Source: Anaerolineae bacterium (GTDB taxonomy: Bacteria; Chloroflexota; Anaerolineae; B4-G1; DUEL01). Taken from it: 64,000 bases of DNA. The notes below the pieces were generated by a model. It was not told where the DNA came from. It made no database searches and saw only the letters and a program-made list of their open reading frames with translations. The DNA lies in NCBI GenBank assembly GCA_049972045.1, contig JBMFKS010000003.1, positions 9,723 to 73,722 on the forward strand, in the 5' to 3' direction. The first letter of the stretch is position 1. Every line of letters starts with the position of its first letter. Of this stretch, positions 1,870-19,789 are shown in pieces. Made by a program: the position numbers and the translations under genes.

Positions 1870-4872
<3,003 letters not shown>

Positions 4873-4874
4873 CG

Positions 4875-4905: not shown

Positions 4906-5060
4906 CTGGTAACGCTTCCCTAACTGTTTTGTAACTGTTGACAGAAGTGCGAAATTTAAGGATCGTGTTATAATTGGAGTGGTTCGGTTCGTGATGGGCG
5001 GGGAAAGGGGAATTTTGTGGCGGAGGGAATTTCTCCACCTGCACAGGAGATAGCCTGGGC

Positions 5061-5441
5061 ATGAACCATCCAAAGATTTTATATATTGAGGATAATCCGG
5101 AGAACCGTTTGCTGATCCGGCGGATTCTGGAGGCGGAAGGGTACACCGTGGTGGAGGCTGTAGATGGGCCTTCCGGGTTGGAAGCAGCGGCATCCTCTCC
5201 GCCTGACCTGATTCTCCTGGACATCAACCTGCCGGAGATGGATGGGTACGAACTGGTGGGGAAGTTACGCCAGATTCCGGGTTTGGCGACGACTCCGATC
5301 ATTGCACTGACGGCCTATGCTCTGAAGGGAGATCGGGAACGCATCCTCTCTGCTGGTTGTGACGGCTATATTCAGAAGCCCATAGATGTGGACAGTTTAC
5401 CGGTTCAGGTGGCCTCATTTCTGAAGAAGGGGGCCGGCTGA
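5061..5441 (+). CDS. Single-domain response regulator (CheY-like receiver)
   Basis: ILYIEDNPENRLLIRRILEAEGYTV...LILLDINLPEMDGYEL...TAYALKGDRERILSAGCDGYIQKP carries the REC D/D/K signature positions. Confidence 0.85.
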   Translation: MNHPKILYIEDNPENRLLIRRILEAEGYTVVEAVDGPSGLEAAASSPPDLILLDINLPEMDGYELVGKLRQIPGLATTPIIALTAYALKGDRERILSAGCDGYIQKPIDVDSLPVQVASFLKKGAG

Positions 5442-5456
5442 GGTTGGGAGGCACCG

Positions 5457-5873
5457 ATGCCACCGCTAAACCCGCAGGATGTCACCGTTCTGGTAATTGA
5501 GGACAACCTGAACAACTTCCTGCTTATGGCCCGCCTGCTGGCGTTTGTTGGGGTGGGGCGCTGCGAGTGGAAGGCTTCCGGCTGGCAGGTGCTGGAGTAC
5601 GCTGAGACGTTGCCGCGCATAGACCTGATTTTGATGGACATTTTCCTCCCGGAGCGGGATGGCTATGAGGCTCTGAGCCTGCTGCGATCGCATCCTCGCT
5701 TCAAAGACGTTCCCATTATTGCGATCACGGCGGATGCCAGTGTGGAGAGCATGGAGCGGGCTCGCCAGGCTGGATTTAATGGTTTCATTGGCAAGCCGAT
5801 AGACCCGGACCGGTTTCCAGAGCAAATTTGGCGCATCCTGCGGGGTGAGCCCGTTTGGGACCCGGGGATATAA
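5457..5873 (+). CDS. Single-domain response regulator (receiver)
   Basis: VLVIEDNLNNFLLMARLL...LILMDIFLPERDGYEAL...ITADASVESMERARQAGFNGFIGKP is a REC fold. It lies 16 nt after the previous REC gene. Confidence 0.85.
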   Translation: MPPLNPQDVTVLVIEDNLNNFLLMARLLAFVGVGRCEWKASGWQVLEYAETLPRIDLILMDIFLPERDGYEALSLLRSHPRFKDVPIIAITADASVESMERARQAGFNGFIGKPIDPDRFPEQIWRILRGEPVWDPGI

Positions 5874-6008
5874 CCGGGTCTCCTTATTCGGGTCGAAAAG
5901 CCCTTCCTTTCCCGTGAACTGCGGAAGTCCTGCTTTTAAGCACTCTCCGCTGGGGTGGTGGTTACTCGTGGCGAGTGTGACCCATCCCGCGATCAGCGAG
6001 TAGCGAAA

Positions 6009-8348
6009 ATGGAGGCCTTTCCAGGGGCCGCTGGTCTGGAAGTGCCCGGCGTGGGGATGCGAGGCGGGCTGGGACGGACCATTCTGACCGCCTTCCTGAT
6101 ATTGGCGATTGTACCGCTCAGTGTTGTCAGTTGGTACGCCTCCACCCGTCACCGCGAGAATATCCAGGAGGAGGTGACGGGGAAACTGGTCACCATCGCC
6201 GCTCTGAAAGAGGCCCAGATTACCCGTTGGCTGGAGGAGCAAGCCGTCGCGCTGGACGACCCGGAACTGCGGGAAGCCATCTTCCGGGCGGCTGGAAGAA
6301 GCCCCGAAGAAATCCGCTCCCTCCTGACCACTCTCGCTTCCCAGAAGGGTGTTGAGGACCTGGCCCTGATTGGCCCTCAGGGTCGGGTGGAGTGGGCCGG
6401 GGATGCCTCCTGGGAGGGTGATACCGTTATCCTGCCTTCCAGCCCCGATGCCTTCGCTCTCCAGGTGTCTCCGAACCTTGCCGGACGGGAAGGGATTGTC
6501 CTGATCCGGCCGTTAAGTTCAGCCCGATGGCCCTCCATCGCGGCCCGGCTGACCGGGGAGGGCTTGATCCATATTCTGGAGGAACGGGCCGGCCTGGGCG
6601 AAACGGGAGAAGCCTACTTGGTGGATCAATGGGGGTTCGCCTGTCCACAAAATCGTCGGATCACCAGCCCGGCCATTCAGGCGGCCCTTTCCGGACAGGA
6701 CGGTCAGGGCCTGTATGAGAACTATAGGGGCACGCCCGTCATTGGCGTCTACCGGTGGCTCCCCACGCTGAGCCTGGCCCTGGTCGTGGAGCAGACGCAA
6801 GAGGAGGCCTTCGCGGGCAACGAGGCGGTGACTACCGCCGTCATTGCGGCCACCCTGGGCGTCGCCATCGCCACGGCGGCTATCGCCGCCGTGGTCACCC
6901 GCCAGATTACCCGACCGGTCGTCCGGCTGACGGAATCCGCTCTGCGGATTGCCGCCGGAGACCTCTCCCAGCGGGTGGACATCACCTCCCGGGACGAAAT
7001 TGGCATCCTGGCCCAGGTCTTCAATCAGATGGCGACGGAACTGGAGGCCCTGTACAACGACCTGGAGGCCAAAGTTGCGGAGCGAACCCGCCTTCTCCAG
7101 CAGGCCAACTACCAGATTCAGCGCCGCGCCATCCAGTTGCAGGCCAGCCTGGAGGTCGGGCAAGCGGTCACCTCCATCCTGGACCCGGACGCCTTGCTGG
7201 AGCACGTGGTGCGCGTGGTGCGGGATTGCTTTTATTACTCCCACGTCGCCGTTTACACCACGGACGAATCGGGCAATGGGTTGGTTCTTCGGGCTTCCGC
7301 AGGAGAGGCTGACCCGTTTCATGGCGCGCGTGTGACCGGCGAGTCTCTCAGCGCGGTCGGGCAAGCGTTCCGGGATGGTCGGGCGGTTCTGGAAAGCCGA
7401 CCGGTCTCCATCAGGGTGGGTCCGCCCCTCTCCTACGCCCGGGCGGAGGCGGCGCTCCCTCTCCGCCTGGGTGACCGGGTGCTGGGGGTGATGGACGTCC
7501 AGAGCACCCAGCCCGAGTCCTTTGACCAGGATGACGTCTCCGTCCTGCAGAACGTGGCCAATCAGGTCGCCATCGCCCTGGAGAACGCCCGGGCCTACGC
7601 GCTGGAGCGGGAGGCCGCCGAGCGGCTCCGGGAACTGGACCGCTCCAAGCGGCGCTTCCTGGCGAACATGTCCCACGAACTGCGCACGCCGTTGACCAAC
7701 ATTATCGGGTTTGCCCGGCTGATGCTGAAGGAGATAGACGGCCCGCTGACCGACCAGCAGCGGCATGACCTGGAAATCATCTACCACAACGGCGAGCATC
7801 TCCTGGGCCTCATCAATGACCTCCTGGACATCTCCCAGATTGAGGCCGGGATGATGGAACTGGAGTTCCGGGAAGTGGACCTGGGTGACCTGATCCGTAG
7901 CGTGATGGCCACCGCCAGCGCGCTGTTGCGGGGGAAGCCGGTTGTGATGCGGGAGATCATTGCTCCGCAATTGCCCAAGGTACGGGCCGACCCCACCCGC
8001 ATCCGGCAGGTCCTGTTGCGCATTCTGGCCAATGCGGCCAAGTTTACCGACCAGGGCACCATCACCGTCCGGGCGTGGGCAGAAAATGGGGAGGTCCGGG
8101 TCAGCGTCAGTGACACAGGTATTGGGATCCCTCCGGAGGCGCGGGAGCGCATCTTTGAGCGGTTTGAGCAGGGTGTGATGGAAAATGGCCGTCGCCCCGA
8201 TGGAACCGGCCTGGGGCTGGCGCTGAGCAAAGAGTTCGTGGAGATGCACGGCGGCCGTATTTGGGTGGAGAGCGAGGTCGGGAAGGGCTCTACCTTCACG
8301 TTCACGCTGCCTTTGCAGCCTGCCCCCTTTTCCACGAAAGGAGGCTGA
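6009..8348 (+). CDS. Sensor histidine kinase: extracytoplasmic sensor, TM, HAMP, S-helix, GAF, HisKA, HATPase
   Basis: TM segments flank a ~250-aa periplasmic domain. A HAMP domain (RLTESALRIAAGDLSQRVD...) is followed by ERTRLLQQANYQIQRRAIQLQAS, a GAF domain, the H-box [19 protein letters not shown], and N/G boxes ending [37 protein letters not shown]. The start is chosen at MEAF and could instead be the MRGG 16 codons later. Confidence 0.88.
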   Translation: MEAFPGAAGLEVPGVGMRGGLGRTILTAFLILAIVPLSVVSWYASTRHRENIQEEVTGKLVTIAALKEAQITRWLEEQAVALDDPELREAIFRAAGRSPEEIRSLLTTLASQKGVEDLALIGPQGRVEWAGDASWEGDTVILPSSPDAFALQVSPNLAGREGIVLIRPLSSARWPSIAARLTGEGLIHILEERAGLGETGEAYLVDQWGFACPQNRRITSPAIQAALSGQDGQGLYENYRGTPVIGVYRWLPTLSLALVVEQTQEEAFAGNEAVTTAVIAATLGVAIATAAIAAVVTRQITRPVVRLTESALRIAAGDLSQRVDITSRDEIGILAQVFNQMATELEALYNDLEAKVAERTRLLQQANYQIQRRAIQLQASLEVGQAVTSILDPDALLEHVVRVVRDCFYYSHVAVYTTDESGNGLVLRASAGEADPFHGARVTGESLSAVGQAFRDGRAVLESRPVSIRVGPPLSYARAEAALPLRLGDRVLGVMDVQSTQPESFDQDDVSVLQNVANQVAIALENARAYALEREAAERLRELDRSKRRFLANMSHELRTPLTNIIGFARLMLKEIDGPLTDQQRHDLEIIYHNGEHLLGLINDLLDISQIEAGMMELEFREVDLGDLIRSVMATASALLRGKPVVMREIIAPQLPKVRADPTRIRQVLLRILANAAKFTDQGTITVRAWAENGEVRVSVSDTGIGIPPEARERIFERFEQGVMENGRRPDGTGLGLALSKEFVEMHGGRIWVESEVGKGSTFTFTLPLQPAPFSTKGG

Positions 8349-8351
8349 ACG

Positions 8352-9191
8352 ATGGCTGTCGCAACCGTAGACCGGGAAACGATTCGGCGAATTCTGCGGG
8401 AAGAACTTCCCCGAATGGTGGAGGAAGACCAGGATTTTCGGTACTGGTTGACCGGGTGGATTGCAGAGACTTTCCCCAAACGCTCGGAGGTGGAGCAGGC
8501 ATTGGCGCAGGTCTTAGAGCATCTGGTCGCGCTGCGGGAGGACTTTAACCGCCAGTTCGCCCTGCAATCCCAGCGGCTGGAGGTCGTGGAGCAGCGGCTG
8601 GAGGTCGTGGAGCAGCGGCTGGAGGTCGTGGAGCAGCGGCTGGAGGTCGTGGAGCAGCGGCTGGATGCTTTTGAGCAGCGGATGGAGGAACTGCGCCAGG
8701 ATTTCAACCGCCAGATGATGCGTCTGGTGGAACGGCATGAGTCCCTGGAGCAACGGGTAAACCAAGGGTTTGCCCGGCTGGAAGCCACCGTGGGAGCGAT
8801 CGGGGCCCGCTGGGGGATGATGGCCGAGGAAGCCTTCCGTTCGGGAATGGCGGGCATCCTCCGGGACCAGTTTGGCTGGCAGGTGGAACGCCTCCTGATG
8901 ATGGATACCGAGGGCTTCGTCTTCGGACACCCTGATCAGGTGGAGATAGACATCGCCATCCACGACGGCGCCCACTGGCTGATTGAGATTCGCTCCTCCA
9001 TGAGCAAGGCCGAGATGTACACCTTTGTGCGCAAGGTGGAGTTCTATGAGCGGCTGCGGGGAGTCCAGGTGGCCCGACGGATCGTCATCTCCCCGATGAT
9101 CCACCCTCAGGCCCAGAAGGTCGCGGAGCGTCTGGGCATAGAACTGTACACCTCCGTCTACGACGTCTCGCCGGACCTGCGGGGGGGATGA
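8352..9191 (+). CDS. Coiled-coil protein with C-terminal Hjc-like PD-(D/E)XK (restriction-endonuclease-fold) domain; paralog of 16271..17215
   Basis: It starts 3 nt after the kinase stop with an upstream AAGGAGG. There is a heptad repeat LEVVEQR x4. The C-terminus reads IGARWGMMAEEAFRSG...FGHPDQVEIDIAIHDGAHWLIEIRSSMSKAEMYTFVRKVEFYER, an E...D...E-x-K spacing like Hjc and related nucleases. The family name is not certain. Confidence 0.6.
   Translation: MAVATVDRETIRRILREELPRMVEEDQDFRYWLTGWIAETFPKRSEVEQALAQVLEHLVALREDFNRQFALQSQRLEVVEQRLEVVEQRLEVVEQRLEVVEQRLDAFEQRMEELRQDFNRQMMRLVERHESLEQRVNQGFARLEATVGAIGARWGMMAEEAFRSGMAGILRDQFGWQVERLLMMDTEGFVFGHPDQVEIDIAIHDGAHWLIEIRSSMSKAEMYTFVRKVEFYERLRGVQVARRIVISPMIHPQAQKVAERLGIELYTSVYDVSPDLRGG
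8571..8663 (+). repeat. In-frame 21-bp tandem repeat (cagcggctggaggtcgtggag x ~4.4) encoding LEVVEQR heptads
   Basis: The direct repeat is visible in the sequence at 8571-8663. Confidence 0.85.
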
Positions 9192-9223
9192 GGGGTCCCG
9201 GGAAGAGGGGTGAGGCCAGCGAA

Positions 9224-10051
9224 ATGACCGCGGTAGTGGCGATCGCGAACCATAAAGGCGGCGTCGCTAAGACGACAACCTGCCTATCCCTGGGCGGTGC
9301 CCTGGCGGAGCAGGGGCTTCAGGTCTTGGTGGTAGACCTGGACCCTCAGGCGCATCTGACCCTCTCTCTGGGGCTCCGGCCCGAGGAACTCCGTCATACC
9401 CTTGCGGATGTGCTCCTGGAGCAGCAATCTGTGGTTGCGGTCAGCCGGGAGACATCGGTGGCGGGCCTGGACCTGGTGCCGGCCAGCGGCGAACTGGTGG
9501 TCCTGGACAAAGCCCTCTATGGCCGGCCCGGTTATGAGTACCGGTTGCGGCAGGCCCTGGGGCGGATGTCCGTCGCCTACGACTTTGTCCTGATGGACTG
9601 CCCTCCTTCCTTCGGCACCCTGACCCTCAACGCGCTCACCGCTGCCGATATGCTCATCATCCCGATACAGTGTGAGTACTATGCCTGGCGTTCCCTCCGC
9701 CCGATGCTGGAACTGGTGACGGTGGTCCGGCAGAAAACCAACCCTGCCCTCCGCTACCGTCTCCTGGTCACAATGTACGATGCGCGCAGCCGCATTCACC
9801 GGCTGATCTTGGAGCAAATTCACCGCTTTTTCCCCCAGGCCACTTTTCGGACGATTGTCCAGGTAGATACTCGCTTGCGGGAAAGCCCGGTCTATGGCCT
9901 GCCGGTGACCCAGTATGCCCCTCGCACGCGGGCCGCCGAGCAGTATCGGGCTGTTGCCCAGGAGATGATGGTCTGTTTCCCCCCCGCGCCGACGGTCATT
10001 ACGGGTCCACAAAGGGCGTGGCCTGTAGAGCATTCTGTCGCAAGCGGGTAG
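9224..10051 (+). CDS. ParA/MinD-family P-loop ATPase (orphan; no parB in window)
   Basis: It contains the deviant Walker A motif VAIANHKGGVAKTTT, plus VVDLDPQAHLT and LMDCPPSFGTLTLNAL. An ORF beginning earlier, at 9188, overlaps the upstream stop. Start M13 is preferred because it has an RBS. Confidence 0.85.
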   Translation: MTAVVAIANHKGGVAKTTTCLSLGGALAEQGLQVLVVDLDPQAHLTLSLGLRPEELRHTLADVLLEQQSVVAVSRETSVAGLDLVPASGELVVLDKALYGRPGYEYRLRQALGRMSVAYDFVLMDCPPSFGTLTLNALTAADMLIIPIQCEYYAWRSLRPMLELVTVVRQKTNPALRYRLLVTMYDARSRIHRLILEQIHRFFPQATFRTIVQVDTRLRESPVYGLPVTQYAPRTRAAEQYRAVAQEMMVCFPPAPTVITGPQRAWPVEHSVASG

Positions 10052-10076
10052 ATGGATAAAGCGAGGAACAGAGACG

Positions 10077-12293
10077 ATGGAGTCATTCAAGCGGTCACTG
10101 GAAGAACTGTTTTCGGATTTCACCCCACCCGCTCCGGAGGGTATCTCCCCTGCTCCCCAGGAGGAAAAGCCACCGGCTCCCGCCCCGGCCCCGCGCCAGC
10201 CCACAGAGGCTGTGCTTTCCGGGAAGGAAATCGCCAGGCAGGTTGGACCGGGAGTCTCGCTGATAGGGGCCCATGTCCGCAATATTCGCGCGCAACTCTT
10301 GGGGAATACGTTGATCATTCTGGTTGTGATTCTCTGGACCGCTTTCCTGATCGGCAGCGCGATGGTGCGGTTGAACCGGGCGGTTGCGGCGGTGGGGGAG
10401 GAGACCACGCGGGCCAATACGGCGCTGGCGGCAGGAAAGGCGGCGGCGGAACTCTTCGTCGCTATCGGACAGGGAACGCTGGCCCAGGACCCAGAAGTGC
10501 TGATCCGGGGCATCACCGAAGCGCGCGAGCACCTCCTGCAGACGCAGGACCGCCTTCTGGAGAGCGTTGCCCCGATTCCGGTGGAAGACCCCCTGTGGTC
10601 GGAATTGATCCGTCTACGGGCCGCTATCTCCCAGATGGATTCCTGGACCACTTATTTCATAGAACAGGCCCGCCGGTACAACTGGGAAAACATTCGGGCT
10701 TCTCAATTGTATCTGGTTCCCTATTATCTGAACGAAATCACCGCAGCAACGGTAGGGGTGGAAAAACTGACCCAGGAGCGGCTGGCCCTTGCCAACCAGG
10801 AGGCAGCCGCAGCGCGGGAAATACTGCGCAACATCACGATATCCTGGGGCATTGTTCTGCTTCTGGTGGTCATAGGGGTAAACGTTGCTTTCCTGCGCAG
10901 TATCGCCGACCCGCTGGAACGGCTGGCCGAAGCATCCGCTCGCCTGGCGGCCGGCCGTCTGGAGACGCGCGTCGCCATAGACCGGGCCGATGAGTTCGGC
11001 CGCCTGGCTCAGGCCTTCAATGATATGGCTGAGCATTTGCAGACCCTTTACAACGAATTGGAAGAGCGGGTGCAGGAGCGGACCCGCGCCCTTCAGGAAG
11101 CCAACTATGCCCTCCAGCGACGGGCCATCCAGTTGGAGGCCAGCGCCGAAGTGAGCCGATCCATCATCTCTATTTTCAACGTGGACGAGCTGCTGTGGCG
11201 GGCCGTCAACCTGATTCGGGACCGCTTCGGCTTCTACCACGCTGGCATTTTCCTGATGGACGAGACGGGGGAATGGGCCGTGCTGCGGGAGGCCACGGGC
11301 GAGGCAGGTGCCCAGATGAAGGCCCAGGGCCACCGCCTCCCGGTGGGGGAGACCAGCATGGTCGGCTGGACGGCCCTCCACCGCCGCCCCCGCATCGCCC
11401 TGGACGTGGGCCAGGACGCGGTCCACTTTGCCAACCCTCTCCTGCCCTACACCCGTTCGGAGATGACCCTCCCTCTGATGGTCGGTGGTCGTCTCCTGGG
11501 GGTGCTGGACGTTCAGTCCACCGAAGAGGCCGCCTTTGATGAAGACGACATTCGGGCTCTCCAAAGCATGGCCGACCAGTTGGCCATTGCCATAGAGAAC
11601 GCCCGACGGCTTTCCGAAGAAGCCTTGCTGCTGGAAGCGACCAGCCCCATCTACCGCTTTAGCCGCCGGCTGGGCAGCGCGGCCACCGTGGAGGACATCG
11701 CGGAGGTCATCATTGGAACCGTCTCCGAGACCGAGGCGGATGGCTGCGTGGTGGTGGAGTTTGAGTCCTCCGACGGGGTACCGGAAGCCTTGCTCTACCG
11801 GGGGGTCTGGCGGCGGGACCGGGAGCCCACCTTCCGGCCCGGGATGCGGATGGAGGCATCCGAGACCCCTCTGCCCACTCTCATGCTGAGTCGGATGTGG
11901 GTCAGTGAGGATGCCCAGCGAGATTCCCAGATGTCGGATAAGGCCCGGGAACTCTTCCGCGCTACCGGTGTCGGGGCTGTCGTCAACATCCCGCTGCGGG
12001 TGGGGGAGCGGTCTGTGGGTCAGGTCGTCATCCTGCGGTCCACACCGGGCCCCTTCTCTCCGGCGTCGCTGCGACTCTATGAGGTCATCGGCGACCAGGC
12101 GGCCGTCGCGCTGGAGCGGGCCCGCCTGCTGGAAAGGATGCGGCAGCGAGCGGAGCAGGAGGAGGCTCTGCGGAGCATCGCCGACCAGATTACGGCCACT
12201 TTTGACCTGCGAACGGCCCTGCAGACGACGCTACAGCAACTGACCCAGGTGCTGGACGCCCGCGGTGGCTATGCGGAACTGGGAACCAGGTAG
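10077..12293 (+). CDS. Membrane sensor protein: TM-periplasmic domain-TM-HAMP-S-helix-GAF-GAF, no output domain
   Basis: There are two hydrophobic helices. A HAMP domain (LAEASARLAAGRLETRVAIDRADEFGRLAQAFNDMAEHL) is followed by ERTRALQEANYALQRRAIQLEASAE and two GAF-like domains. No HisKA/HATPase, GGDEF, EAL or HTH domain is present. Confidence 0.8.
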   Translation: MESFKRSLEELFSDFTPPAPEGISPAPQEEKPPAPAPAPRQPTEAVLSGKEIARQVGPGVSLIGAHVRNIRAQLLGNTLIILVVILWTAFLIGSAMVRLNRAVAAVGEETTRANTALAAGKAAAELFVAIGQGTLAQDPEVLIRGITEAREHLLQTQDRLLESVAPIPVEDPLWSELIRLRAAISQMDSWTTYFIEQARRYNWENIRASQLYLVPYYLNEITAATVGVEKLTQERLALANQEAAAAREILRNITISWGIVLLLVVIGVNVAFLRSIADPLERLAEASARLAAGRLETRVAIDRADEFGRLAQAFNDMAEHLQTLYNELEERVQERTRALQEANYALQRRAIQLEASAEVSRSIISIFNVDELLWRAVNLIRDRFGFYHAGIFLMDETGEWAVLREATGEAGAQMKAQGHRLPVGETSMVGWTALHRRPRIALDVGQDAVHFANPLLPYTRSEMTLPLMVGGRLLGVLDVQSTEEAAFDEDDIRALQSMADQLAIAIENARRLSEEALLLEATSPIYRFSRRLGSAATVEDIAEVIIGTVSETEADGCVVVEFESSDGVPEALLYRGVWRRDREPTFRPGMRMEASETPLPTLMLSRMWVSEDAQRDSQMSDKARELFRATGVGAVVNIPLRVGERSVGQVVILRSTPGPFSPASLRLYEVIGDQAAVALERARLLERMRQRAEQEEALRSIADQITATFDLRTALQTTLQQLTQVLDARGGYAELGTR

Positions 12294-12327
12294 CACGGGC
12301 CTCAGCCTGTGCAAGGAGGCAGCTCAG

Positions 12328-13977
12328 ATGCCCGATACCCGACAGCCCAGTGAGATCACTGAATTTCAGGACTGGCAGGCTCGCGCGCTGAACGTTCTCC
12401 TGTTCGCGCTGACTCTCACCGCGACCCCAGTGATCATTTTCGTCGGAGTGGAAGCGATTCGCGCTCCGGAACGGGGTGCCGCCGCGCCGCTATTTGGTGC
12501 CTTGTACGTTTTTCTGGTCCTTCTGACCGTGCTCCGTCGGCTTCCGCAACGGATCCGGCTGATCGGTTTTCTGATCGTGGGGTATGCGGTAGCGGTGACC
12601 GCCTTTCTGCGGGGGGGGCTGGTCGGGGATGGACGCCTTTTCCTGATGATTCTCCCCCTGATGGCCCTGGCCCTCTCGGACCTGCGAATGGGCCTGGCTG
12701 CCGGCATTTGCAGTCTCCTGATTCATCTGGCTTTTGTGCTGTTTGCCCACCTGGGATGGCTCTCCCAGTGGGTCGTGGTGAAGGAGAACCCGCTGGCCCT
12801 CGGCGACTGGCTCACGGCCACGGCCGTTTTCCTGATGCTCCTGGCGGGCCTGTTCGTCATTGTGGGGCTCTCCAACCGCTCGCTGATCCGGGCCCTGGAG
12901 GCGAGCCGCCAGTTGGCGCAGGAACGGGCCGCGGCCTATAACCTGCTGGAGGGGCAGACCCGGGAACTGGAGCGGCGGACTCGCTGGCTGGAGGCCGCGA
13001 CCCATGCCGCTCGGGAGGCCGCTACGCTGGAAGAGCCGGATGTCCTGCTCTCCCGGGTGGCCGAGGAACTGGCCCGACGGATGGACTTGGAGGAGGTGAT
13101 TTTCTACACTGCGGGTCCGGAAGGCGAATTGGTTGCCCGGGCGATGGCGGAAAGTCGGCAGGTTGTGCCGGTGGATGTCATGCCCTCCGGCGCGTCGCCG
13201 CTGGCTCGGGAGGCCCTCCAGAGCGGCGCCGTCCGGTCGGGGTGGTGGGGTGGCCTGTACGAGGTAGCCTCCCCGCTGCGGCTTCAGGAGCGGACGCTAG
13301 GGGTGATGGTGGTTCGTTTCCCCACCGAAATCCGGATGGACGGGGCAGAGGCCGTCGTCTTGGGGTTAATCGCGAACCAACTGGCGGTGGCCCTGGAGAA
13401 CGCCCGCCTCTTCTCCGAAACCCGGGCCAGCCTGCGGGAACTGGAAGCCCTCTATCGCCGATACACGACCCAGGCCTGGGAACGGTTCGTCCGGGAGGCT
13501 CCGGAGAGTGTCCGCCTGTGGACGGGGCCGGAGGAGGTGCCGGAGGGGGTCTGGCAGGGCCTCTTTGAGCAGGCCCGCGCCTCCGGCTCGGTCGCGGTGG
13601 GCGAGGAGGATTCCCGGTACCTGCTGGCCGTGCCGGTGAAACTGCGGGGCGTGGCGATTGGTGTGCTGGGATTCCATCGGGAGCAGGCGGCGGGCCGGTG
13701 GCGTCCGGAGGAGATTGCCGCGGCGGAGACGGTGGCGGAACGGCTCGCGCTGGCGGTGGAGAACGCCCGTTTGCTGGAAGAGGCTCATCGCCGGGCCGCC
13801 CGGGAGCATCTGGTCGCCGAAATCACCGCCCGGCTGCGGGCCTCCCTGGACCCGGATACCGTCCTCAAGACCACCGTCCGGGAACTGGGGCGGGCGCTGC
13901 GGGCCCGCTGGGCGGCGGTGGAGATCACCGGACCGCTGCAGGAGGGGACGGGCCGCTCGCAGGAGGTAGGGGGATGA
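12328..13977 (+). CDS. Polytopic membrane N-domain fused to GAF domains (output-less sensor)
   Basis: A strong RBS (caaggagg) lies 8 nt before the ATG at 12328, and the longer ORF begins at 12265. There are 5-6 TM helices and then GAF-like regions (LGVMVVRFP..., [30 protein letters not shown]). The frame differs from the 10077 gene, and the two genes overlap by up to 28 nt. Confidence 0.75.
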   Translation: MPDTRQPSEITEFQDWQARALNVLLFALTLTATPVIIFVGVEAIRAPERGAAAPLFGALYVFLVLLTVLRRLPQRIRLIGFLIVGYAVAVTAFLRGGLVGDGRLFLMILPLMALALSDLRMGLAAGICSLLIHLAFVLFAHLGWLSQWVVVKENPLALGDWLTATAVFLMLLAGLFVIVGLSNRSLIRALEASRQLAQERAAAYNLLEGQTRELERRTRWLEAATHAAREAATLEEPDVLLSRVAEELARRMDLEEVIFYTAGPEGELVARAMAESRQVVPVDVMPSGASPLAREALQSGAVRSGWWGGLYEVASPLRLQERTLGVMVVRFPTEIRMDGAEAVVLGLIANQLAVALENARLFSETRASLRELEALYRRYTTQAWERFVREAPESVRLWTGPEEVPEGVWQGLFEQARASGSVAVGEEDSRYLLAVPVKLRGVAIGVLGFHREQAAGRWRPEEIAAAETVAERLALAVENARLLEEAHRRAAREHLVAEITARLRASLDPDTVLKTTVRELGRALRARWAAVEITGPLQEGTGRSQEVGG

Positions 13978-16289
13978 ACATCCAGATGAGCGCATTCTGG
14001 ATTGACCTGATTGTCTACGGGGCAGTGGCGGTGATCTCCGCTGTGCAGATTCTCGTTGTCCTGGGAGCGGGTATCCGGCGGCGGGTGAACCTGCTCTTTG
14101 CTTGGATGATGCTGATGATTGCCCTGTGGACGGGTACCGCTGTGGTGCTCCGGGTTTCCCTCTGGCGGGTCTGGCAGGCAGGGCCGGTTCAGCAGTTCTG
14201 GATGGAAATCTCTTCGCTGGCATTCCTCCTGATCGCCCCGCTGATGCTGGCCTTCAGTGCGGCCTATATAGAGACAAAGGCCCGCTGGCCCTACTGGCTC
14301 AGCCTTCTGGGGCTGGCGGGAATCGGCCTTTTTGCCGTTCCTCTTTTCCGCCATCAGGTAGTCTATAATGTCCACATCACCCCTTCCGGAGTAATATCCT
14401 GGGACCGTACGCCGCTCGCTTTCATCCTCTCTCTGCCCCAGACGGTTGGTCCGATTCTGAGCCTGGTTTTGCTGTGGCAGGAGCGGCGAATCCGGGATTA
14501 CTCCCTGATGGCGGCTTTCACTCTGATGCTGGTCTCTTCTCTGCTTTTTTCCGTCATTCAGGTGAACTTTCCATCCCTCAGCCTGACGACCCTGGTCGTG
14601 GTGGTGCTTCTGGCCTACGCGGTGCTGAACCGCCAACTCTTTCGCCCCCTGCGGGAGTTGACCCGGGAGTTGGAGAAGCGGGTGGAGGAGCGGACCCGGG
14701 AACTGGCGGAAACCTCCCTCCGCCTGCAGGAGGCCAACCGCGATCTGGCCCGCCGGACAGCCCAATTGGAAGCCGCTTCCGCAGTGGCCCGCCGTGCGGC
14801 CGAAATCCACGCTGTGGATGCTCTGCTGAACGAGACCGTTCGCCTCATCTCCGACCGCTTCGGCTTCTACCACGCGGGCATCTTCCTGATAGACGAAGCC
14901 CGGGAGTACGTCGTCCTGCGGGCCGCCTCGTCCGAGGGCGGGCAGCGGATGCTGGCCCGGGGCCACCGGCTTGCCGTCGGCGAGGAAGGGATCGTCGGCT
15001 ATGTGGCGGGGACGGGAAAGCCGCGGATCGCGCTGGACGTGGGCGAGGACGCGGTTTTCTTCAGCAACCCTGACCTCCCCCACACCCGCTCGGAGATGGC
15101 GTTGCCGCTGAAGGTGGGGGAGCAGGTCATCGGTGTGCTGGACGTCCAGTCGGTGGAGCCCTCCGCATTCACCGATGAGGATGTGACGGTCCTGCAGACG
15201 ATGGCCGATCAGATTGCCCTGGCCATTGAGAATGCCCGTCTGCTGGCGGAAGTCCAGGACCGCCTGCGGGAGGTGGAGACCCTGAGCCGGGAGTATGTCC
15301 GCCGGGAGTGGGAGCAGATGGTCTCCGAGCGGCCCGGCTGGGGGTACATCTACGACGGCGTAGAGGTGAGGCCCCGGGAGCGGGTTTCTCCTCCCGAAGG
15401 GGTTTCGCCGGGTATCACGGTCCCCTTGCAACTGGCAACAGGCGAGACCATCGGGCAAGTGGCGCTGGCTCTCCCCCATCGGCCTCCCACCGACGAGGAC
15501 GTGGCCCTGGCTCAGGCAGTGGCCCAGCAGGCCGCGCTGGCGTTGGAAAGCGCCCGCCTCTTCCAGGAGACCCGGCGGACGCTGGAGGAGATGGAATCCC
15601 TGTTCCGGGCCAGTGAGGCGATCAACACGGCCAGCACCCCCGATGACGTCCTGCGTGCATTTGTGGACCACGTGGTCCCGCCCCAGATTGACCGCTGTGT
15701 ATTGGCGCTCTTGGACCCCGAGAGTCCTTCAGAGGAGATGGCGGTGGATGCGGTGGCGGCCTGGGATCGGGGGAAGGAACGATCGCCTTCCCTGGGCCGC
15801 CGCTGGAGCATAGCTCAGATTCCCTTCATCGCCCGACGGTCTACGGAGCCGGTGGTCATATCGGACGTGGCGACATATCCAGACGTGGACGAGGTATCCC
15901 GATATGTGTTCATGAACGTCCTGGGGGTTCGGGCGGTCCTGGGAATCCCGCTGGTGGCCGGCGGGCGGCTCCTGGGCTGGCTGATGGTGGAGTCCCTCAC
16001 CAGACCCTACGAATTCAGCGAGCGGGAAGTCCGCCTCTACCGGACGCTGGCCGACCAGGCCGCGCTGGCGCTGGAGCGAATGCGCCTCTTTGAGGAGACC
16101 CGGCGCCGGGCGGAATGGGAGCGCATTCGCGCCGAGGTCGCCGCCCGCGTGCGCGCCTCTACCGACATAGAGACCATCCTGCGCACCGCCGTTCGGGAAA
16201 TGGGGCGGGCCTTCCGGGCGGCGGAGGGGGTCATCCAGTTGCACGGAGGGGACGGCCGGAAGGAGGGGGAATGGAGCAAGACGTCGTGA
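13974..16289 (+). CDS. 7-8 TM N-domain + coiled coil + 3-4 GAF domains (output-less sensor)
   Basis: The ATG at 13974 overlaps the upstream stop as ATGA. The N-terminal ~330 aa are hydrophobic. The rest contains LRELTRELEKRVEERTRELAETSLRLQEANRDLARRTAQLEAA and the conserved GAF cassette FGFYHAGIFLIDEAREYVVLRAASSEGG... Confidence 0.8.
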   Translation: MNIQMSAFWIDLIVYGAVAVISAVQILVVLGAGIRRRVNLLFAWMMLMIALWTGTAVVLRVSLWRVWQAGPVQQFWMEISSLAFLLIAPLMLAFSAAYIETKARWPYWLSLLGLAGIGLFAVPLFRHQVVYNVHITPSGVISWDRTPLAFILSLPQTVGPILSLVLLWQERRIRDYSLMAAFTLMLVSSLLFSVIQVNFPSLSLTTLVVVVLLAYAVLNRQLFRPLRELTRELEKRVEERTRELAETSLRLQEANRDLARRTAQLEAASAVARRAAEIHAVDALLNETVRLISDRFGFYHAGIFLIDEAREYVVLRAASSEGGQRMLARGHRLAVGEEGIVGYVAGTGKPRIALDVGEDAVFFSNPDLPHTRSEMALPLKVGEQVIGVLDVQSVEPSAFTDEDVTVLQTMADQIALAIENARLLAEVQDRLREVETLSREYVRREWEQMVSERPGWGYIYDGVEVRPRERVSPPEGVSPGITVPLQLATGETIGQVALALPHRPPTDEDVALAQAVAQQAALALESARLFQETRRTLEEMESLFRASEAINTASTPDDVLRAFVDHVVPPQIDRCVLALLDPESPSEEMAVDAVAAWDRGKERSPSLGRRWSIAQIPFIARRSTEPVVISDVATYPDVDEVSRYVFMNVLGVRAVLGIPLVAGGRLLGWLMVESLTRPYEFSEREVRLYRTLADQAALALERMRLFEETRRRAEWERIRAEVAARVRASTDIETILRTAVREMGRAFRAAEGVIQLHGGDGRKEGEWSKTS

Positions 16290-17215
16290 TCCTCATCCGC
16301 CAGAAATTGCCGGAACTGATGCGCACCGACCCGGAGATTCGGGAGTGGATTCTGGAACTGGGGCGGGAGTATTTCGCCGACCGGGCCCAGACCGACTCCC
16401 GCTTTGAGCAGATGCTGGAAGAACTACGCCGGGACCGGGAGGAATGGAGCCGCCGCTGGGAAGAGGAGAAAGCCGAGCGGGAGCGGCGGCTGGCAGAGGA
16501 GCGCGCGGAATCGGACCGCCGCTGGCGGAGGTGGCTGGCCCAATATGAGCGTCGCTGGCAACGGCAACTGGAAGAATGGAACCGCCGCTGGGAGGAAGAG
16601 AAAGCCGAAAGGCGCCGCCAGTGGGAGGAGGGAATGGCCGAATGGCGCCGCCAGTGGGAGGAGGAGAAGGCCGAATGGCGTCGCCAGTGGGAGGAGGGAA
16701 TGGCCGAATGGCGCCGCCAGTGGGAGGAGGGAATGGCCGAATGGCGCCGCCAGTGGGAGGAGAACCGGCAGGAGCATCAGGAGTTTCGGGCCTCCTTTGA
16801 CCGCCTGCTCCAGCGGGTAGATAGCAAAATCTCGGCCATCGGCGCTCGGTGGGGGATCTTCGCCGAATCGGCCTTCCGCGAGGGCATCCAGGCCATCCTG
16901 GAAGAGAGTTTCGGGGTGCAGGTCCTCCGATACCAGGCCTGGGACGAGCAGGGAGAGGTCTTTGACCAGCCGGACCAGGTGGAACTGGACCTCATCATCC
17001 GGGATGGCACCCTGATCATCTGCGAGATCAAATCCTCCATGAGTCGCTCGGATATGTACACCTTTGCCCGGAAAGTCCGTTTCTACGAACGGCACGAGGG
17101 TCGCCGGGCGAACCGGCGGATGGTGATTTCCCCGATGGTGGAGGAACGGGCCCTTCAGGTGGCCCATCGGTTGGGGATAGAGGTCTATACCCATGCCGAC
17201 GAGGTGCCGTTATAA
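16271..17215 (+). CDS. Coiled-coil protein with C-terminal Hjc-like PD-(D/E)XK domain; paralog of 8352..9191
   Basis: The ATG at 16271 follows GGAGG and lies 19 nt inside the upstream gene. A W/E/R-rich repeat reads RRQWEEGMAEW x ~4. The C-terminus, IGARWGIFAESAFREG...FDQPDQVELDLIIRDGTLIICEIKSSMSRSDMYTFARKVRFYER, is colinear with the 8352 protein. Confidence 0.6.
   Translation: MEQDVVILIRQKLPELMRTDPEIREWILELGREYFADRAQTDSRFEQMLEELRRDREEWSRRWEEEKAERERRLAEERAESDRRWRRWLAQYERRWQRQLEEWNRRWEEEKAERRRQWEEGMAEWRRQWEEEKAEWRRQWEEGMAEWRRQWEEGMAEWRRQWEENRQEHQEFRASFDRLLQRVDSKISAIGARWGIFAESAFREGIQAILEESFGVQVLRYQAWDEQGEVFDQPDQVELDLIIRDGTLIICEIKSSMSRSDMYTFARKVRFYERHEGRRANRRMVISPMVEERALQVAHRLGIEVYTHADEVPL
16608..16765 (+). 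repeat. In-frame 33-bp tandem repeat (~4.5 copies) encoding RRQWEE[G/E][M/K]AEW
   Basis: Direct repeats of cgccgccagtgggaggagggaatggccgaatgg are visible. Confidence 0.85.
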
Positions 17216-17266
17216 GCGAGACAACTGCGTGCGGTTGTCCGCCGCAAGAGGCGCAGGAGCACGATC

Positions 17267-19153
17267 ATGGAGCAAAGGATTCCGATCTCGCGAACCCCAA
17301 ACACCCTGGGCGGACGGCTGGCCGGCCTGGCCCTAATTCTCATCCTGATCGTACTGGCCGGCGGGGTGGTCGTCATCCGCCAGTTAATCCGCATCCGCGA
17401 CGCGGTGATCGCGATGCAGGAAGCCTCTACCCATATGGAGATGGCCCTCTCATCGGCCCACCAGACGACCGAACTGGTGCTCAATGTCCGGGAAGGCGTG
17501 GGCCAGGGACTGGGCGGGGCGGAATTGAACCAGCGGCTGGCTCCGTATCTGGTCACCCTGGAGACCCAGCGGCAGGCGCTGCAGGTAGAGGCGGAGCATC
17601 TTCCTCCCGGGAGTGACCTCCAGGCTCGGATGGCTACCGTGGGGACGGTTCTGGGAAACGTGAGCGGCGTGGCCCGCCAGATTCTCCAGGCGGTGGAACA
17701 GGAGGACCGGACTTGGGCCCGCTATCTGCTGGCCCAACTGAGTGTGAATCACCGACTGGTGGAACAAGAGACCATCCAACTGGTCGTGCTGGCCCGGGCG
17801 CGCCATGAACAGGCCCAGGCAGAGGCCCGCCTGGCCGCGCGACGGGTGCTTATCGTGGTCCCATTGGCGACGGTGGCGGTGATTCTGGTCGCGGCCGGGG
17901 CGGCCGTTCTGCTCCTGAGGGGGGTGGTCACCGGGGTCCGCATGCTCTCCGACTCCGCCGGGCAGTTGGCGGTGGGCCGCCTGGAGACCCGGGTGCCGGA
18001 GCGGGGATTGGAGGAGTTCCGCTTCCTGGCCCGGACCTTCAACAATATGGCTTCCGAACTCCAGCAACTGTATACCGGCTTGGAACGGCTGGTAGCCCGG
18101 CGCACCGCCGATCTGGCCCGCCGGACGGCCCAACTGGAAGCCGCTGCCTTCGTCGCCCGCCGCGCCGCCGAAATCCGCGATGTGGACACGCTTCTCAACG
18201 AGACCGTCCGCCTCATCTCCGACCGCTTCGGCTTCTACCACGCGGGGATCTTCCTGATAGACGAGGCGGGGGAATATGCCGTTCTGCGGGCGGCTTCTTC
18301 GGAGGGTGGGCGGCGGATGCTGGCCCGGGGCCACCGGCTGGCAGTGGGGAAGGTGGGCATCGTCGGCACCGTGGCGGGGACCGGCAGGCCCCGCATCGCG
18401 CTGGACGTGGGAGAGGATGCCGTCTTCTTTGACAATCCCGACCTGCCGCTGACCCGTTCGGAGATGGCGGTGCCGTTGAAGGTGGGAGACCGGGTCATCG
18501 GCGTGCTGGATGTGCAGTCCGTGGAGCCGGAAGCCTTCACGGACGAGGACGTGGCGGTCTTGCAGACGATGGCCGACCAGATCGCCCTGGCCATTGAGAA
18601 CGCCCGACTCCTGGAGGAGAGCCGCCGGGCACTGGAGGAACTGGAACGGTTGTACGGGGTGCGGGCGCGGGAAGCCTGGGAAATCGTGGCATCTTCTCGC
18701 CCGGCTGTTTACCGCTATACCGGAACGGATGTGGAACCGCTTCCAGCGCCGGTTCCGCCGACCGGTGAGGGGGATGGTCGCCATCTGACCGTGCCCATCC
18801 GCCTCTGGGGCCAGGCCATTGGCTCCATCCTGCTGCAACGCACGGAGGAGCAACCTCCCTGGTCGCCGGAGGAGCGGCAGTTGGGGGAGGAGATCGGGGA
18901 GCAGATCGCCCTGGCGCTGGAGAACGCCCGCCTGATCGCGGAGACGGAGAGCCGGGCCGCCCGGGAGCGGATGCTGGCCGAGATGACGGCCCGCCTGACT
19001 CGTTCGCTGGATATAGATGCCCTTCTGGATGCAGCGGTCCGGGAACTGGCCCGGCTGCCGGAGGTGGCGGAGGTGGCCGTCTATGTGGGCGGGCAGGAAG
19101 TATCATCCCCGCTCTCCCGAGAGCCCGGGCGGCGGGAGAGAGGGCGCGGGTAA
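17267..19153 (+). CDS. Membrane sensor protein: TM-helical periplasmic domain-TM-HAMP-S-helix-GAF-GAF, no output domain
   Basis: Two TM helices flank a ~170-aa helical domain. A HAMP domain (MLSDSAGQLAVGRLETRVPERGLEEFRFLARTFNNMASEL) is followed by the conserved GAF cassette and a second GAF-like region. Confidence 0.8.
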   Translation: MEQRIPISRTPNTLGGRLAGLALILILIVLAGGVVVIRQLIRIRDAVIAMQEASTHMEMALSSAHQTTELVLNVREGVGQGLGGAELNQRLAPYLVTLETQRQALQVEAEHLPPGSDLQARMATVGTVLGNVSGVARQILQAVEQEDRTWARYLLAQLSVNHRLVEQETIQLVVLARARHEQAQAEARLAARRVLIVVPLATVAVILVAAGAAVLLLRGVVTGVRMLSDSAGQLAVGRLETRVPERGLEEFRFLARTFNNMASELQQLYTGLERLVARRTADLARRTAQLEAAAFVARRAAEIRDVDTLLNETVRLISDRFGFYHAGIFLIDEAGEYAVLRAASSEGGRRMLARGHRLAVGKVGIVGTVAGTGRPRIALDVGEDAVFFDNPDLPLTRSEMAVPLKVGDRVIGVLDVQSVEPEAFTDEDVAVLQTMADQIALAIENARLLEESRRALEELERLYGVRAREAWEIVASSRPAVYRYTGTDVEPLPAPVPPTGEGDGRHLTVPIRLWGQAIGSILLQRTEEQPPWSPEERQLGEEIGEQIALALENARLIAETESRAARERMLAEMTARLTRSLDIDALLDAAVRELARLPEVAEVAVYVGGQEVSSPLSREPGRRERGRG

Positions 19154-19168
19154 GAACAGGGGAGCACT

Positions 19169-19774
19169 ATGAGGGTGACGACGTATCCGGAGGTCAAAAC
19201 CCCGGAGCAGATTCTCTACGAGTGGTTTGCCGAGCGGGTCTGGGAGGAGGACCTTTATCTGGAACTGGCGAACCGGGGGAACGTCTATGTGGAACTGGAC
19301 GACGGGAGGATCGTGTTTCCGATGATGCCGACCGTGCTGCACCAGATGGTCGTCCTGAACCTGGCCACCGCCCTGCGGGCGTACGCGCGCTCGCTTCCCG
19401 CACCCGGCCGGGTGTTGATCGCTCCGACGCCGATCCGTCTCTGGCCCCTGAAGATTCGGGAGCCCGATGTGGTGTTCTATAGGGCCGAACATCTGGACCG
19501 GGTGGGCGAGCAGGTGAGCGGGGTGCCCGATTTCGTCGCCGAGGTCCTTTCGCCGTCCACCCTGGCGCTGGATACCGGGCAGAAGATGGTGGAATATGCC
19601 CTGGCGGGCATCCCCGAGTACTGGCTGGTGGACCCGGACCGCCGGACCGTTGCCGTCTATGTCCTGGAAGGGACGGGTTACCGTCTGGCCGGAGAATACG
19701 GTGTCGGTCAGCGGGTAGCGGCGCAGACTCTGCCCGGCTTTTCGCTGGATGTGGATGAACTCTGGATGCCGTAA
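19169..19774 (+). CDS. Uma2-family (DUF820) restriction-endonuclease-fold protein
   Basis: GVPDFVAEVLSPSTLALDTGQKMVEYALAGIPEYWLVDPDRRTVAVY is the Uma2 signature. It starts 15 nt after the GAF-gene stop. Confidence 0.85.
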   Translation: MRVTTYPEVKTPEQILYEWFAERVWEEDLYLELANRGNVYVELDDGRIVFPMMPTVLHQMVVLNLATALRAYARSLPAPGRVLIAPTPIRLWPLKIREPDVVFYRAEHLDRVGEQVSGVPDFVAEVLSPSTLALDTGQKMVEYALAGIPEYWLVDPDRRTVAVYVLEGTGYRLAGEYGVGQRVAAQTLPGFSLDVDELWMP

Positions 19775-19789
19775 CGTTGCCCATCATGG

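Follow-up and report, generated by a model that had tools for sequence, protein, structure and literature searches.

Ligand-controlled nucleases are known from type III CRISPR systems, where Can1, Can2 and Card1 consist of a CARF sensor fused to a PD-(D/E)XK nuclease, with strict co-occurrence of the two. Phage T4 carries free-standing homing endonuclease genes (seg and mob) that are found between conserved genes. Proteins with the Pfam domains PDDEXK_10 and DUF3782 have been described as predicted PD-(D/E)XK endonucleases on coiled-coil stalks (Knizewski 2007, PMC1913061; Hartmann 2016, PMC4786415), and the papers found on this family report neither an experimentally characterised member nor a signalling context.

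We analysed a stretch of 64,000 nucleotides from an Anaerolineae bacterium (hereafter the window), in which two genes of this family, here called PDX1 and PDX2, and one Uma2 gene lie within a long array of sensor genes (Table 1). An original prediction saw in them a possible output of the sensors. Our preferred reading, to which we assign a probability of about 0.6, is that PDX1 and PDX2 are optional NucS-like coiled-coil endonucleases (predicted) that would be co-transcribed with the sensors yet not wired to them.

The sensor operon

Table 1. Sensor array genes and tandem repeats in the window, with the basis of each assignment
Feature	Position	Strand	Basis
REC1, single-domain response regulator	5061-5441	+	Pfam Response_reg E 9e-28; opens conserved module
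REC2, single-domain response regulator	5457-5873	+	Pfam Response_reg E 1e-20
Sensor histidine kinase, HAMP-GAF-HisKA-HATPase_c	6009-8348	+	Pfam
PDX1, DUF3782 + PDDEXK_10	8352-9191	+	Pfam, AF2 model, Foldseek
21-bp tandem repeat x5.6, LEVVEQR heptads in PDX1 coiled coil	8571-8688	+	TRF
ParA/MinD-like ATPase (AAA_31)	9188-10051	+	Pfam
HAMP + 2 GAF protein, no output domain	10077-12293	+	Pfam
MASE11 + GAF protein, no output domain	12265-13977	+	Pfam
3-GAF membrane protein, no output domain	13974-16289	+	Pfam
PDX2, DUF3782 + PDDEXK_10	16271-17215	+	Pfam, motif table, tree
33-bp tandem repeat x5.7, 11-aa unit in PDX2 coiled coil	16574-16762	+	TRF
HAMP + 2 GAF protein, no output domain	17267-19153	+	Pfam
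Uma2 (DUF820) family protein	19169-19774	+	Pfam PF05685 E 8e-35
FAD-dependent oxidoreductase	19790-20983	+	Pfam
GAF protein	21029-22789	+	Pfam
HAMP + 6 GAF protein	22770-26891	+	Pfam
Methyltransf_19	26943-27737	+	Pfam
Hybrid kinase, 7 GAF + HisKA + HATPase + 2 REC	28200-34235	+	Pfam

According to a Pfam scan, positions 5061-34235 form a single array with all genes on the plus strand, in which 9 of the 17 genes encode GAF proteins. Its core (REC, REC, HAMP-GAF kinase, then the GAF array) occurs widely in metagenomes of Anaerolineae, where it was found at 80 loci (these and the loci from other genomes are identified below by numbers with the prefix L). REC1 precedes the kinase in almost all of them, REC2 shares 60-94% identity with the copies of relatives, and the kinase has a 779-aa homolog at 99% identity (P0240) and homologs in more than 120 clusters at 56% identity or more. 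NCBIfam matches of the ParA-like ATPase fall below the cut-offs. The gene for the MASE11 + GAF protein probably starts at an ATG around 12328, because its orthologs are 549-550 aa long. As predicted, five of the six GAF proteins encoded in 5955-22789 have no output domain that Pfam recognises. The genes of the array are tightly packed and probably co-transcribed; a promoter and terminator scan of 4800-21100 returned sites no more frequently than in shuffled sequence and has no bearing on co-transcription either way. With its REC-REC-kinase-ParA-like ATPase and many output-less HAMP, MASE11 and GAF proteins, this widespread Anaerolineae sensor super-operon is apparently undescribed before.

The original prediction placed three nuclease-fold genes directly behind sensor genes, and all six open reading frames are indeed found in this arrangement, with a spacing of 3 nt for PDX1, an overlap of 19 nt for PDX2 and a spacing of 15 nt for Uma2; GGAGG-type ribosome-binding sites are located within the 3' ends of the upstream genes. 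That this pairing is more than chance did not hold up: in relatives free of the insertions, the sensors are followed by ParA or by the FAD oxidoreductase, and since this is one same-strand array with nine GAF genes, essentially every non-GAF gene in it follows a GAF sensor.

Domain content and fold of the three genes

Both PDX proteins match DUF3782 (PF12644; E 1e-22 and 80.4 bits for PDX1, E 2e-23 and 82.7 bits for PDX2, cut-off 24.4) and PDDEXK_10 (PF07788, formerly DUF1626; E 6e-23 and 81 bits for PDX1, E 1e-24 and 86.8 bits for PDX2, cut-off 21.2), while none of PDX1, PDX2 and Uma2 is covered by an NCBIfam model. PDX1 consists of N-terminal helices, a long coiled coil and a PD-(D/E)XK domain; in its AF2 model (pLDDT 83.8) one helix spans residues 44-153, and residues 157-266 have the order H-E-E-E-H-E-H-E at a pLDDT of around 85-97. 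When the PDB was searched with a sequence profile, only coiled-coil noise came back and the nuclease domain went undetected, so that a fold search was needed. With Foldseek, the best solved structures for the C-terminal domain of the PDX1 model were NucS (2vld) and EndoMS (5gkj), with E about 1e-3 and probability 1.0, and the other top matches include MspJI and VC1899 (1xmx). The fold class named in the original prediction is right for the three genes, judging from Pfam (PDDEXK_10 and Uma2) and, for the PDX1 model, from these Foldseek matches.

The catalytic signature of PDX2 is canonical (D...E-I-K). Motif III of PDX1, preceded by D200, is E212-I-R214, with Arg in place of the Lys of E-x-K, and this Arg is also present in its closest orthologs and in Thermoflexus paralogs; because of this replacement, catalysis by PDX1 is not assured. 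Residues E159, D200 and E212 are conserved or invariant across 77 homologs. The coiled coils of both proteins are rich in repeats (Table 1). Repeat units of PDX1 orthologs differ from those in the window, and PDX2 orthologs are 286, 297, 308, 319, 330, 352 and 374 aa long, i.e., their lengths differ by multiples of 11 aa. PDX1 of the conspecific contig L176 (258 aa) was considered as a within-species variant in repeat number and ruled out, as it merely reflects a different start-codon call.

Orthologs of PDX2 occupy the identical slot at L001-4, L059, L092-95 and L176. The dN/dS values are 0.07-0.13 for PDX1 and 0.15-0.20 for PDX2. Given their conservation in the Thermoflexales-like clade, dN/dS values of 0.07-0.20 overall and intact acidic active-site residues, PDX1 and PDX2 are real genes. 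They are paralogs, as had been predicted (44% identity over 172 aa, E 6e-41), and the tree places them in two deeply separated subfamilies, with PDX1 more distant from PDX2 than are homologs of PDX2 in other phyla, and on these grounds a recent tandem duplication of a sensor + nuclease unit was rejected. The locus does not hold three recurrent instances of one pairing, as had been proposed, since PDX1 and PDX2 belong to two deep subfamilies and Uma2 to another family.

The Uma2 match scores 120.3 bits (cut-off 27) and covers profile positions 4-171 of 172. Uma2 shares with PDX1 and PDX2 the fold class alone; the sequences are unrelated and Uma2 has no coiled coil. It is inserted behind the HAMP-GAF gene and ahead of the one for the FAD oxidoreductase; in relatives the latter comes straight after the former. 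The expectation that the adjacencies recur in relatives was borne out for two of the three genes; for Uma2 it failed, as the slot is empty in four related clade contigs (L092, L093, L094 and L095), and contig L176 ends before it. Uma2 is a multi-copy family (genomes of Thermus and Thermosynechococcus have 15-17 copies each), and judging from these comparisons the gene in the window appears to be a recent insertion specific to its lineage, unrelated to the PDX genes.

Presence and absence of PDX genes

Among the 80 metagenome loci with the REC-REC-kinase-GAF array, 58 have at least 1.3 kb after the kinase. A PDX gene follows the kinase in 10 of these and none is found there in the other 48. ParA lies within 2.5 kb after the kinase in 21 of the 58, and immediately 3' of it in 11 loci without PDX (L103, L106, L108, L121, L122, L124, L138, L142, L147, L154 and L162). 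PDX1 is missing at L103, L154, L106 and L108. At L103 and L154 (kinase 91.3% identical, REC2 94%) the difference is a clean indel that matches the PDX1 ORF exactly, and its junction shows no flanking repeats and no target duplications; these two loci, which end before the PDX2 slot, are nested within the PDX1-bearing clade, which implies that PDX1 was lost. At L126 the PDX gene is truncated upstream of D200 and the ExK motif, and L068 (kinase 55% identical) has no PDX at the kinase junction.

The original prediction considered that the nuclease-fold partner could be the missing effector of the sensors or an adaptor. The 48 arrays without PDX after the kinase and the clean indel at L103 and L154 speak against this, as do the truncated remnant at L126 and the absence of a sensor association outside the clade; because the sensors normally occur without PDX, the claim that the nuclease is their output should not be carried forward. 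Near-identical operons that carry PDX1 (L100), lack it (L103) or retain a truncated copy (L126) provide a natural experiment by which the function of DUF3782/PDDEXK_10 proteins becomes testable.

PDX1-type genes are also found at the identical kinase junction in three separate kinase clades, with kinase identity down to about 42%. The kinase stop is followed by the start codon after 2-25 nt or with a 4-nt overlap, the genes flanking the module differ between the clades, and the PDX1-type genes have a common N-terminal signature; a kinase is present upstream at L014 as well (annotated locus L091 and HMM scan). The shared junction and signature indicate that the association of PDX1 with the kinase is old and selectively retained in several lineages, which counts against our preferred reading. 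An ancient recruitment to the 3' end of the REC-REC-kinase operon, with PDX1 acting as a facultative nucleic-acid-directed output or adaptor where it is kept, would explain why three kinase clades have the gene at the identical junction and under purifying selection, and we hold it to be quite unlikely. More generally, PDX1 (and PDX2) could be a clade-specific accessory that the phosphorelay/GAF array has taken on as a facultative output or adaptor, e.g. a nuclease or nucleic-acid binder that responds to phospho-REC or contacts the sensors through its coiled coil and is controlled in this way. The response regulators of the module are single-domain proteins without DNA-binding output and five sensors lack output domains, so some downstream partner is needed, and both PDX subfamilies are found within the same array. 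The tight linkage to the kinase, kept in at least nine species despite the rearranged flanks, and the purifying selection on PDX fit such a role; the arrays that do without PDX, its clean loss from a 91%-identical relative and the truncated copy do not, nor does the rest of the PDX family, where there is no link to sensors. A further point against it comes from L006 and L012, in which the kinases are 41.5% identical with saturated dS, whereas the PDX1 nuclease domains are 88.5% identical (dS 0.57). This pattern shows lateral exchange of the PDX nuclease domain at least once, and a swap between arrays with kinases so different argues against co-adaptation. We regard the accessory role as unlikely.

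The same exchange is among the observations that would fit a selfish, homing-type element, i.e., a free-standing endonuclease gene that invades empty kinase-ParA junctions and passes through cycles of invasion, degeneration and loss. PD-(D/E)XK is one of the folds employed by homing endonucleases, and the presence/absence polymorphism at one exact junction among close relatives, the degenerate copy at L126, the patchy presence across three kinase clades and the phylogenetic discordance at L006/L012, suggestive of recent lateral transfer, all count in this direction. However, only the C-terminal portion of the PDX gene was transferred in L006, as would be expected of gene conversion between resident copies rather than of homing, the junction carries no repeats or duplications, and strong purifying selection and long vertical retention do not agree with such cycles. 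Positions elsewhere in the family are stable within genera (the Thermoflexus loci L027, L038, L053 and L055 have a common DUF2298 neighbour). Among PHROGs, PDX1 matches coiled-coil families only and its nuclease domain has none, and PDX relatives were not found in 2.9 million viral contigs, for which reason a phage origin of PDX was also dropped. A homing-type element is thus very unlikely in our view.

The best 80 PDX genome loci belong to Chloroflexota, Desulfobacterota, Nitrospirota, Cyanobacteria, Chromatiaceae and ANME archaea. The upstream neighbours represent 109 Pfam families, and 6 of 71, all from one clade, contain GAF or HAMP; the downstream neighbours represent 119 families; according to a local HMM scan, sensors are found beside PDX only at L009-L015 (the seven closest Anaerolineae relatives) and in a few stragglers. 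Six assemblies hold 2-3 PDX copies each among the top 80 loci. Against our preferred reading, two PDX subfamilies and Uma2 in one 29-kb array exceed what a random scatter of a few copies per genome would predict.

PADLOC matches raise the possibility that PDX and Uma2 act on their own as nucleases against phages or plasmids, with the array as a permissive landing site: PDX1 and PDX2 match PDLC01085 ('C3a181') over the full length of the model (E 7e-17 and 7e-14) and Uma2 matches the phage-defence candidate PDC-S03 (E 6e-27), both of them unvalidated candidate models. The variable, multi-copy distribution would suit defence genes, and so would the occasional neighbours of PDX across the family, a nucleotidyltransferase at one locus and Uma2 at two; most PDX neighbours are nevertheless housekeeping genes and the positions are stable within genera. 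In the neighbourhood of these genes in the window, the Pfam scan found no defence-island content, the neighbours being sensors, ParA, an oxidoreductase and a methyltransferase. A defence role for these genes seems highly improbable.

Under our preferred reading of optional endonucleases, PDX1 and PDX2 are ordinary members of a widespread prokaryotic family, in which a repeat-rich coiled-coil stalk joins a short helical domain at the N-terminus to a PD-(D/E)XK domain of the NucS/Hjc-like type. In Thermoflexales-like Anaerolineae the two genes sit in intergenic junctions of the long REC-REC-kinase-(ParA)-GAF operon and would be expressed by read-through and translational coupling. They are under purifying selection where present and would be dispensable to the sensor array: most orthologous arrays lack them, very close relatives have cleanly lost PDX1, one lineage shows decay, and the nuclease domain has been exchanged laterally. 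The proteins may act, independently of the sensors, as oligomeric metal-dependent endonucleases or nucleic-acid binders on DNA or RNA, with a possible role in genome maintenance or genetic conflict, not as output of the GAF proteins.

Comparison with known systems

PDX1 and PDX2 match both models of the PDDEXK_10/DUF3782 family far above the gathering scores and have an equal taxonomic spread, including Chloroflexi; there is no essential difference from the family, although PDX1 and the proteins closest to it have Arg for the motif III Lys. The Uma2/DUF820 family, to which ORF 19169-19774 belongs over its full length, has a PD-(D/E)XK fold; in thermophiles and cyanobacteria it is present in multiple copies and varies between strains. 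Like NucS/EndoMS, PDX has a minimal nuclease core, with the D...ExK arrangement in PDX2 and Arg for its Lys in PDX1, but the sequence identity is only 16-17% and PDX is not a member of that family. PDX lacks the N-terminal DNA-binding/dimerisation domain of NucS and the PCNA/clamp motif, and has a long coiled-coil stalk instead.

A ligand sensor that controls a PD-(D/E)XK nuclease, as in Can1, Can2 and Card1, is the concept that the original prediction proposed, and if true it would have meant a new class of two-component output, in which output-less GAF sensors act through a stand-alone nuclease. Unlike in those proteins, PDX and the sensors are separate genes, and their pairing is facultative (10 of 58 arrays). 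As with seg and mob of phage T4, PDX is a small nuclease gene that fills the exact junction of two conserved genes and is oriented as they are, with presence/absence polymorphism, degenerate copies and lateral exchange; in contrast to them, it is carried on the chromosomes of uncultured bacteria and not by viruses, is under strong purifying selection and has long been retained by vertical descent.

Nuclease-fold genes within a GAF-rich array

PDX1 and PDX2, two of the three nuclease-fold genes found behind sensor genes in the window, are typical representatives of an already known but uncharacterised family of predicted nucleases. In one clade they are lodged between genes of a large sensor operon, with which they are predicted to be co-expressed; they would be under selection for their own sake, with gain, loss and recombination independent of the sensors. 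The original prediction treated three sensor genes and the small genes behind them as coupled signalling pairs. Its six ORFs are present, its junctions hold (the first pair 3 nt apart, the second overlapping by 19 nt, the third 15 nt apart), and Shine-Dalgarno-like GGAGG ribosome-binding sites were found inside the upstream genes. The fold assignment was also right (the best solved-structure matches of PDX1 are the PD-(D/E)XK domains of NucS/EndoMS, MspJI and VC1899), and PDX1 and PDX2 are indeed paralogs, with 44% identity over 172 aa.

The window (GC ~65%) is a fragment of an Anaerolineae MAG, in which all genes of 5061–34235 lie on the + strand and 9 out of 17 encode GAF proteins. Because this array consists mostly of GAF genes on the same strand, a position directly behind a GAF sensor is the default for any array gene; sensor adjacency alone is uninformative within it. 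In relatives without the insertions, ParA comes next after the kinase, and the oxidoreductase next after the HAMP-GAF gene.

Table. Features of the sensor array, in gene order, and of its PDX repeats
Feature	Coordinates	Strand	Basis
REC		+	
REC		+	
Sensor kinase, HAMP-GAF-HisKA-HATPase_c	6009–8348	+	Pfam
PDX1, DUF3782 + PDDEXK_10	8352–9191	+	Pfam
ParA-like ATPase		+	
HAMP-GAF		+	
MASE11-GAF		+	
Three GAF domains without output (3xGAF)	13974–16289	+	Pfam
PDX2, DUF3782 + PDDEXK_10	16271–17215	+	Pfam
HAMP + two GAF (HAMP-GAF)	17267–19153	+	Pfam
Uma2	19169–19774	+	Pfam
FAD oxidoreductase		+	
GAF		+	
HAMP-6xGAF		+	
Methyltransf_19		+	
7xGAF-kinase-REC-REC		+	
21-bp tandem repeat x5.6, PDX1 coiled coil	8571–8688		
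33-bp tandem repeat x5.7, PDX2 coiled coil	16574–16762		

The C-termini of the output-less GAF proteins (10077–12293, 12265–13977, 13974–16289, 17267–19153 and 21029–22789) consist, by eye, of a coiled-coil linker followed by what appears to be no more than the initial helix and strand of another GAF domain (e.g. '...AARVRASTDIETILRTAVREMGRAFRAAEGVIQL'). This piece may represent either a GAF fragment, truncated or capping, or an element for docking. Directly upstream of the array is a fused glycyl-tRNA synthetase alpha+beta ORF (1666–4872; 1068 aa as listed, with annotated relatives of 1000 aa, tRNA-synt_2e + 2f), whose position is kept in the window clade only. The MASE11-GAF gene is found in one relative (L093) and missing from the otherwise collinear L092, so the GAF gene content of the array varies between close strains.

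Conservation of the pairs, from the sensor and the nuclease side

The sensor-nuclease adjacency proposed earlier is syntenic for kinase-PDX1, syntenic in closer relatives only for 3xGAF-PDX2 (spacing -19 to +263 nt), and not conserved for HAMP-GAF-Uma2. The order REC-REC-kinase-PDX1 recurs with a gap of 3–25 nt or a 4-nt overlap (L001–L008, L089–L091, L092–L095 and L009–L015), with PDX1 identities of 42–76% across these contigs. Genes outside this module differ (glyQS, FAD-oxidase plus GntR, or a GTPase plus another kinase), and the gene behind PDX1 may be ParA-like, encode a periplasmic binding protein, or already be HAMP-GAF. As for the third pair, the next gene behind the HAMP-GAF ortholog is the FAD oxidoreductase in L092, L093 and L095 and another HAMP-GAF gene in L094, without Uma2 between them. 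In nucleotide alignments with relatives the Uma2 ORF is a simple insertion in the window. Uma2 is a multi-copy, strain-variable family, of which Thermus thermophilus and certain Thermosynechococcus strains have 15–17 copies (PMC1274311, PMC9403480), and here it is an unrelated recent insertion.

Using the kinase sensor region as query, we retrieved 80 metagenome loci (L096–L175); more than 120 kinase homolog clusters were found at ≥56% identity. Essentially all 80 loci have REC-REC-kinase followed by GAF genes. PDX presence was scored in the 58 loci that extend 1.3 kb or more past the kinase: PDX is found behind the kinase in only 10, and ParA within 2.5 kb downstream of the kinase in 21 (as the very next gene in 11 of these 21, those without PDX). 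The proposed sensor-nuclease signalling architecture does not hold up, because the partner is missing from most orthologous sensor modules, a stronger and reciprocal form of the lack of synteny by which it was to be judged. The array thus exists without the nuclease in most lineages, and presumably works without it. Widespread in Anaerolineae metagenomes, the array comprises two single-domain REC genes and the HAMP-GAF kinase, in many cases a ParA/MinD-like ATPase, then a series of output-less HAMP/MASE11/dCache-GAF genes and, at its end, a multi-GAF hybrid kinase; it is apparently a signalling super-operon that has yet to be characterised.

Two loci (L103, Ga0101945_1001012, and L154, Ga0209276_100195) have a kinase 91.3% and a REC2 94% identical to those of the window, and in both only 13 nt (~8313–8326) separate the kinase stop codon from the start of ParA; alignment with the window gives an indel matching exactly the PDX1 ORF. 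Since both are nested within the PDX1-bearing clade on the kinase tree, the absence of PDX1 is a loss, and they provide a natural PDX1 knockout suited to comparison. L106 and L108 (kinase 80–81%) are also without PDX1. In L126 (kinase 56%), a PDX gene of 222 aa (3462–4130) starts 2 nt past the kinase stop, with ParA 58 nt further, and ends '...FGRPDKVGGG*', just short of where the catalytic D and ExK would lie; this copy seems to be in decay. PDX is absent from the kinase junction of Anaerolineae bacterium F17_42 (L068; kinase 55%), where a HAMP-GAF gene follows directly; a PDX2-like gene (5804–6511) lies 2 kb upstream of its REC-REC-kinase (8601–11859), which puts a family member close to this module but in another position.

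From the nuclease side, a scan in which each species was represented by a single genome gave at least 519 PDX relatives, of which the best 80 loci were examined. They come from Chloroflexota, Desulfobacterota, Nitrospirota, Cyanobacteria, purple sulfur bacteria and ANME archaea, and six assemblies among them carry 2–3 PDX copies each. Their upstream neighbours span 109 Pfam families, and just 6 out of 71 of these neighbours contain GAF or HAMP; their downstream neighbours span 119 families, none recurrent. According to a local HMM scan of these 80 loci, the REC-REC-kinase-GAF context is confined to L009–L015 and a few stragglers. No PDX relative was found in 2.9 million viral contigs. A signalling architecture is an unlikely, minority reading for this clade, which survives because the junction position is kept in three kinase clades under purifying selection.

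Selection and descent of the PDX genes

Residues E159, D200 and E212 vary little or not at all among 77 homologs. Against clade relatives, dN/dS is 0.07–0.13 for the PDX1 nuclease domain and 0.15–0.20 for PDX2, comparable to the kinase catalytic domain (0.05–0.12). Both observations argue that PDX1 and PDX2 are genuine genes with a role of their own. The motif III Lys is replaced by Arg (residue 214, E-I-R-S-S) in PDX1, its closest orthologs and Thermoflexus paralogs; PDX2 keeps the canonical Lys, and in the remaining family members the motif reads E-x-K. Even with this Arg, the PDX1 nuclease domain is under strong purifying selection.

PDX1 and PDX2 belong to two deeply separated subfamilies. 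A common N-terminal signature (..EELP....FRY.L.G...ETF...LEHL..LREDFNRQM) is present in every kinase-linked PDX1-type protein, the L126 remnant among them, which is consistent with a single ancient acquisition, inherited vertically since then and lost several times. We also observed a PDX1 mosaic in two loci (L006 10001–10822 and L012 5601–6374). Its nuclease domain is 88.5% identical to that of the window (dS 0.57) and its N-terminus resembles the other clade of kinase-linked PDX1-type proteins (type B), while the adjacent kinase and REC genes are only 41–59% identical (kinase 41.5%), with saturated dS. Judged from these sequences, the nuclease domain was probably exchanged laterally or replaced by gene conversion. 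The coiled coils consist of lineage-specific, in-frame tandem repeats: PDX2 orthologs range from 286 to 374 aa in steps that are multiples of 11 aa, and PDX1 orthologs differ from one another in repeat unit (7-, 11- and 25-residue).

Relation to known families

A database protein (P0001) annotated as 'PD-(D/E)XK nuclease family protein [Anaerolineae bacterium]' is identical to PDX1. The PADLOC profile PDLC01085 'C3a181' (which carries an odd description, diadenylate cyclase) is matched across its whole length by PDX1 and by PDX2, and PDC-S03, a defence candidate, matches Uma2. With PADLOC-DB profiles for both, the PDX and Uma2 families have been flagged elsewhere as defence-associated candidates; we take these matches as leads only. 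An experimental function of the PF07788/DUF3782 family was not found in the literature. PF07788 (DUF1626) has been predicted to be a PD-(D/E)XK domain linked to DUF91/NucS and Hjc/Hje, with an N-terminal coiled coil (PMC1913061), and the DUF3782 stalk has been noted in 'a family of prokaryotic endonucleases' (PMC4786415).
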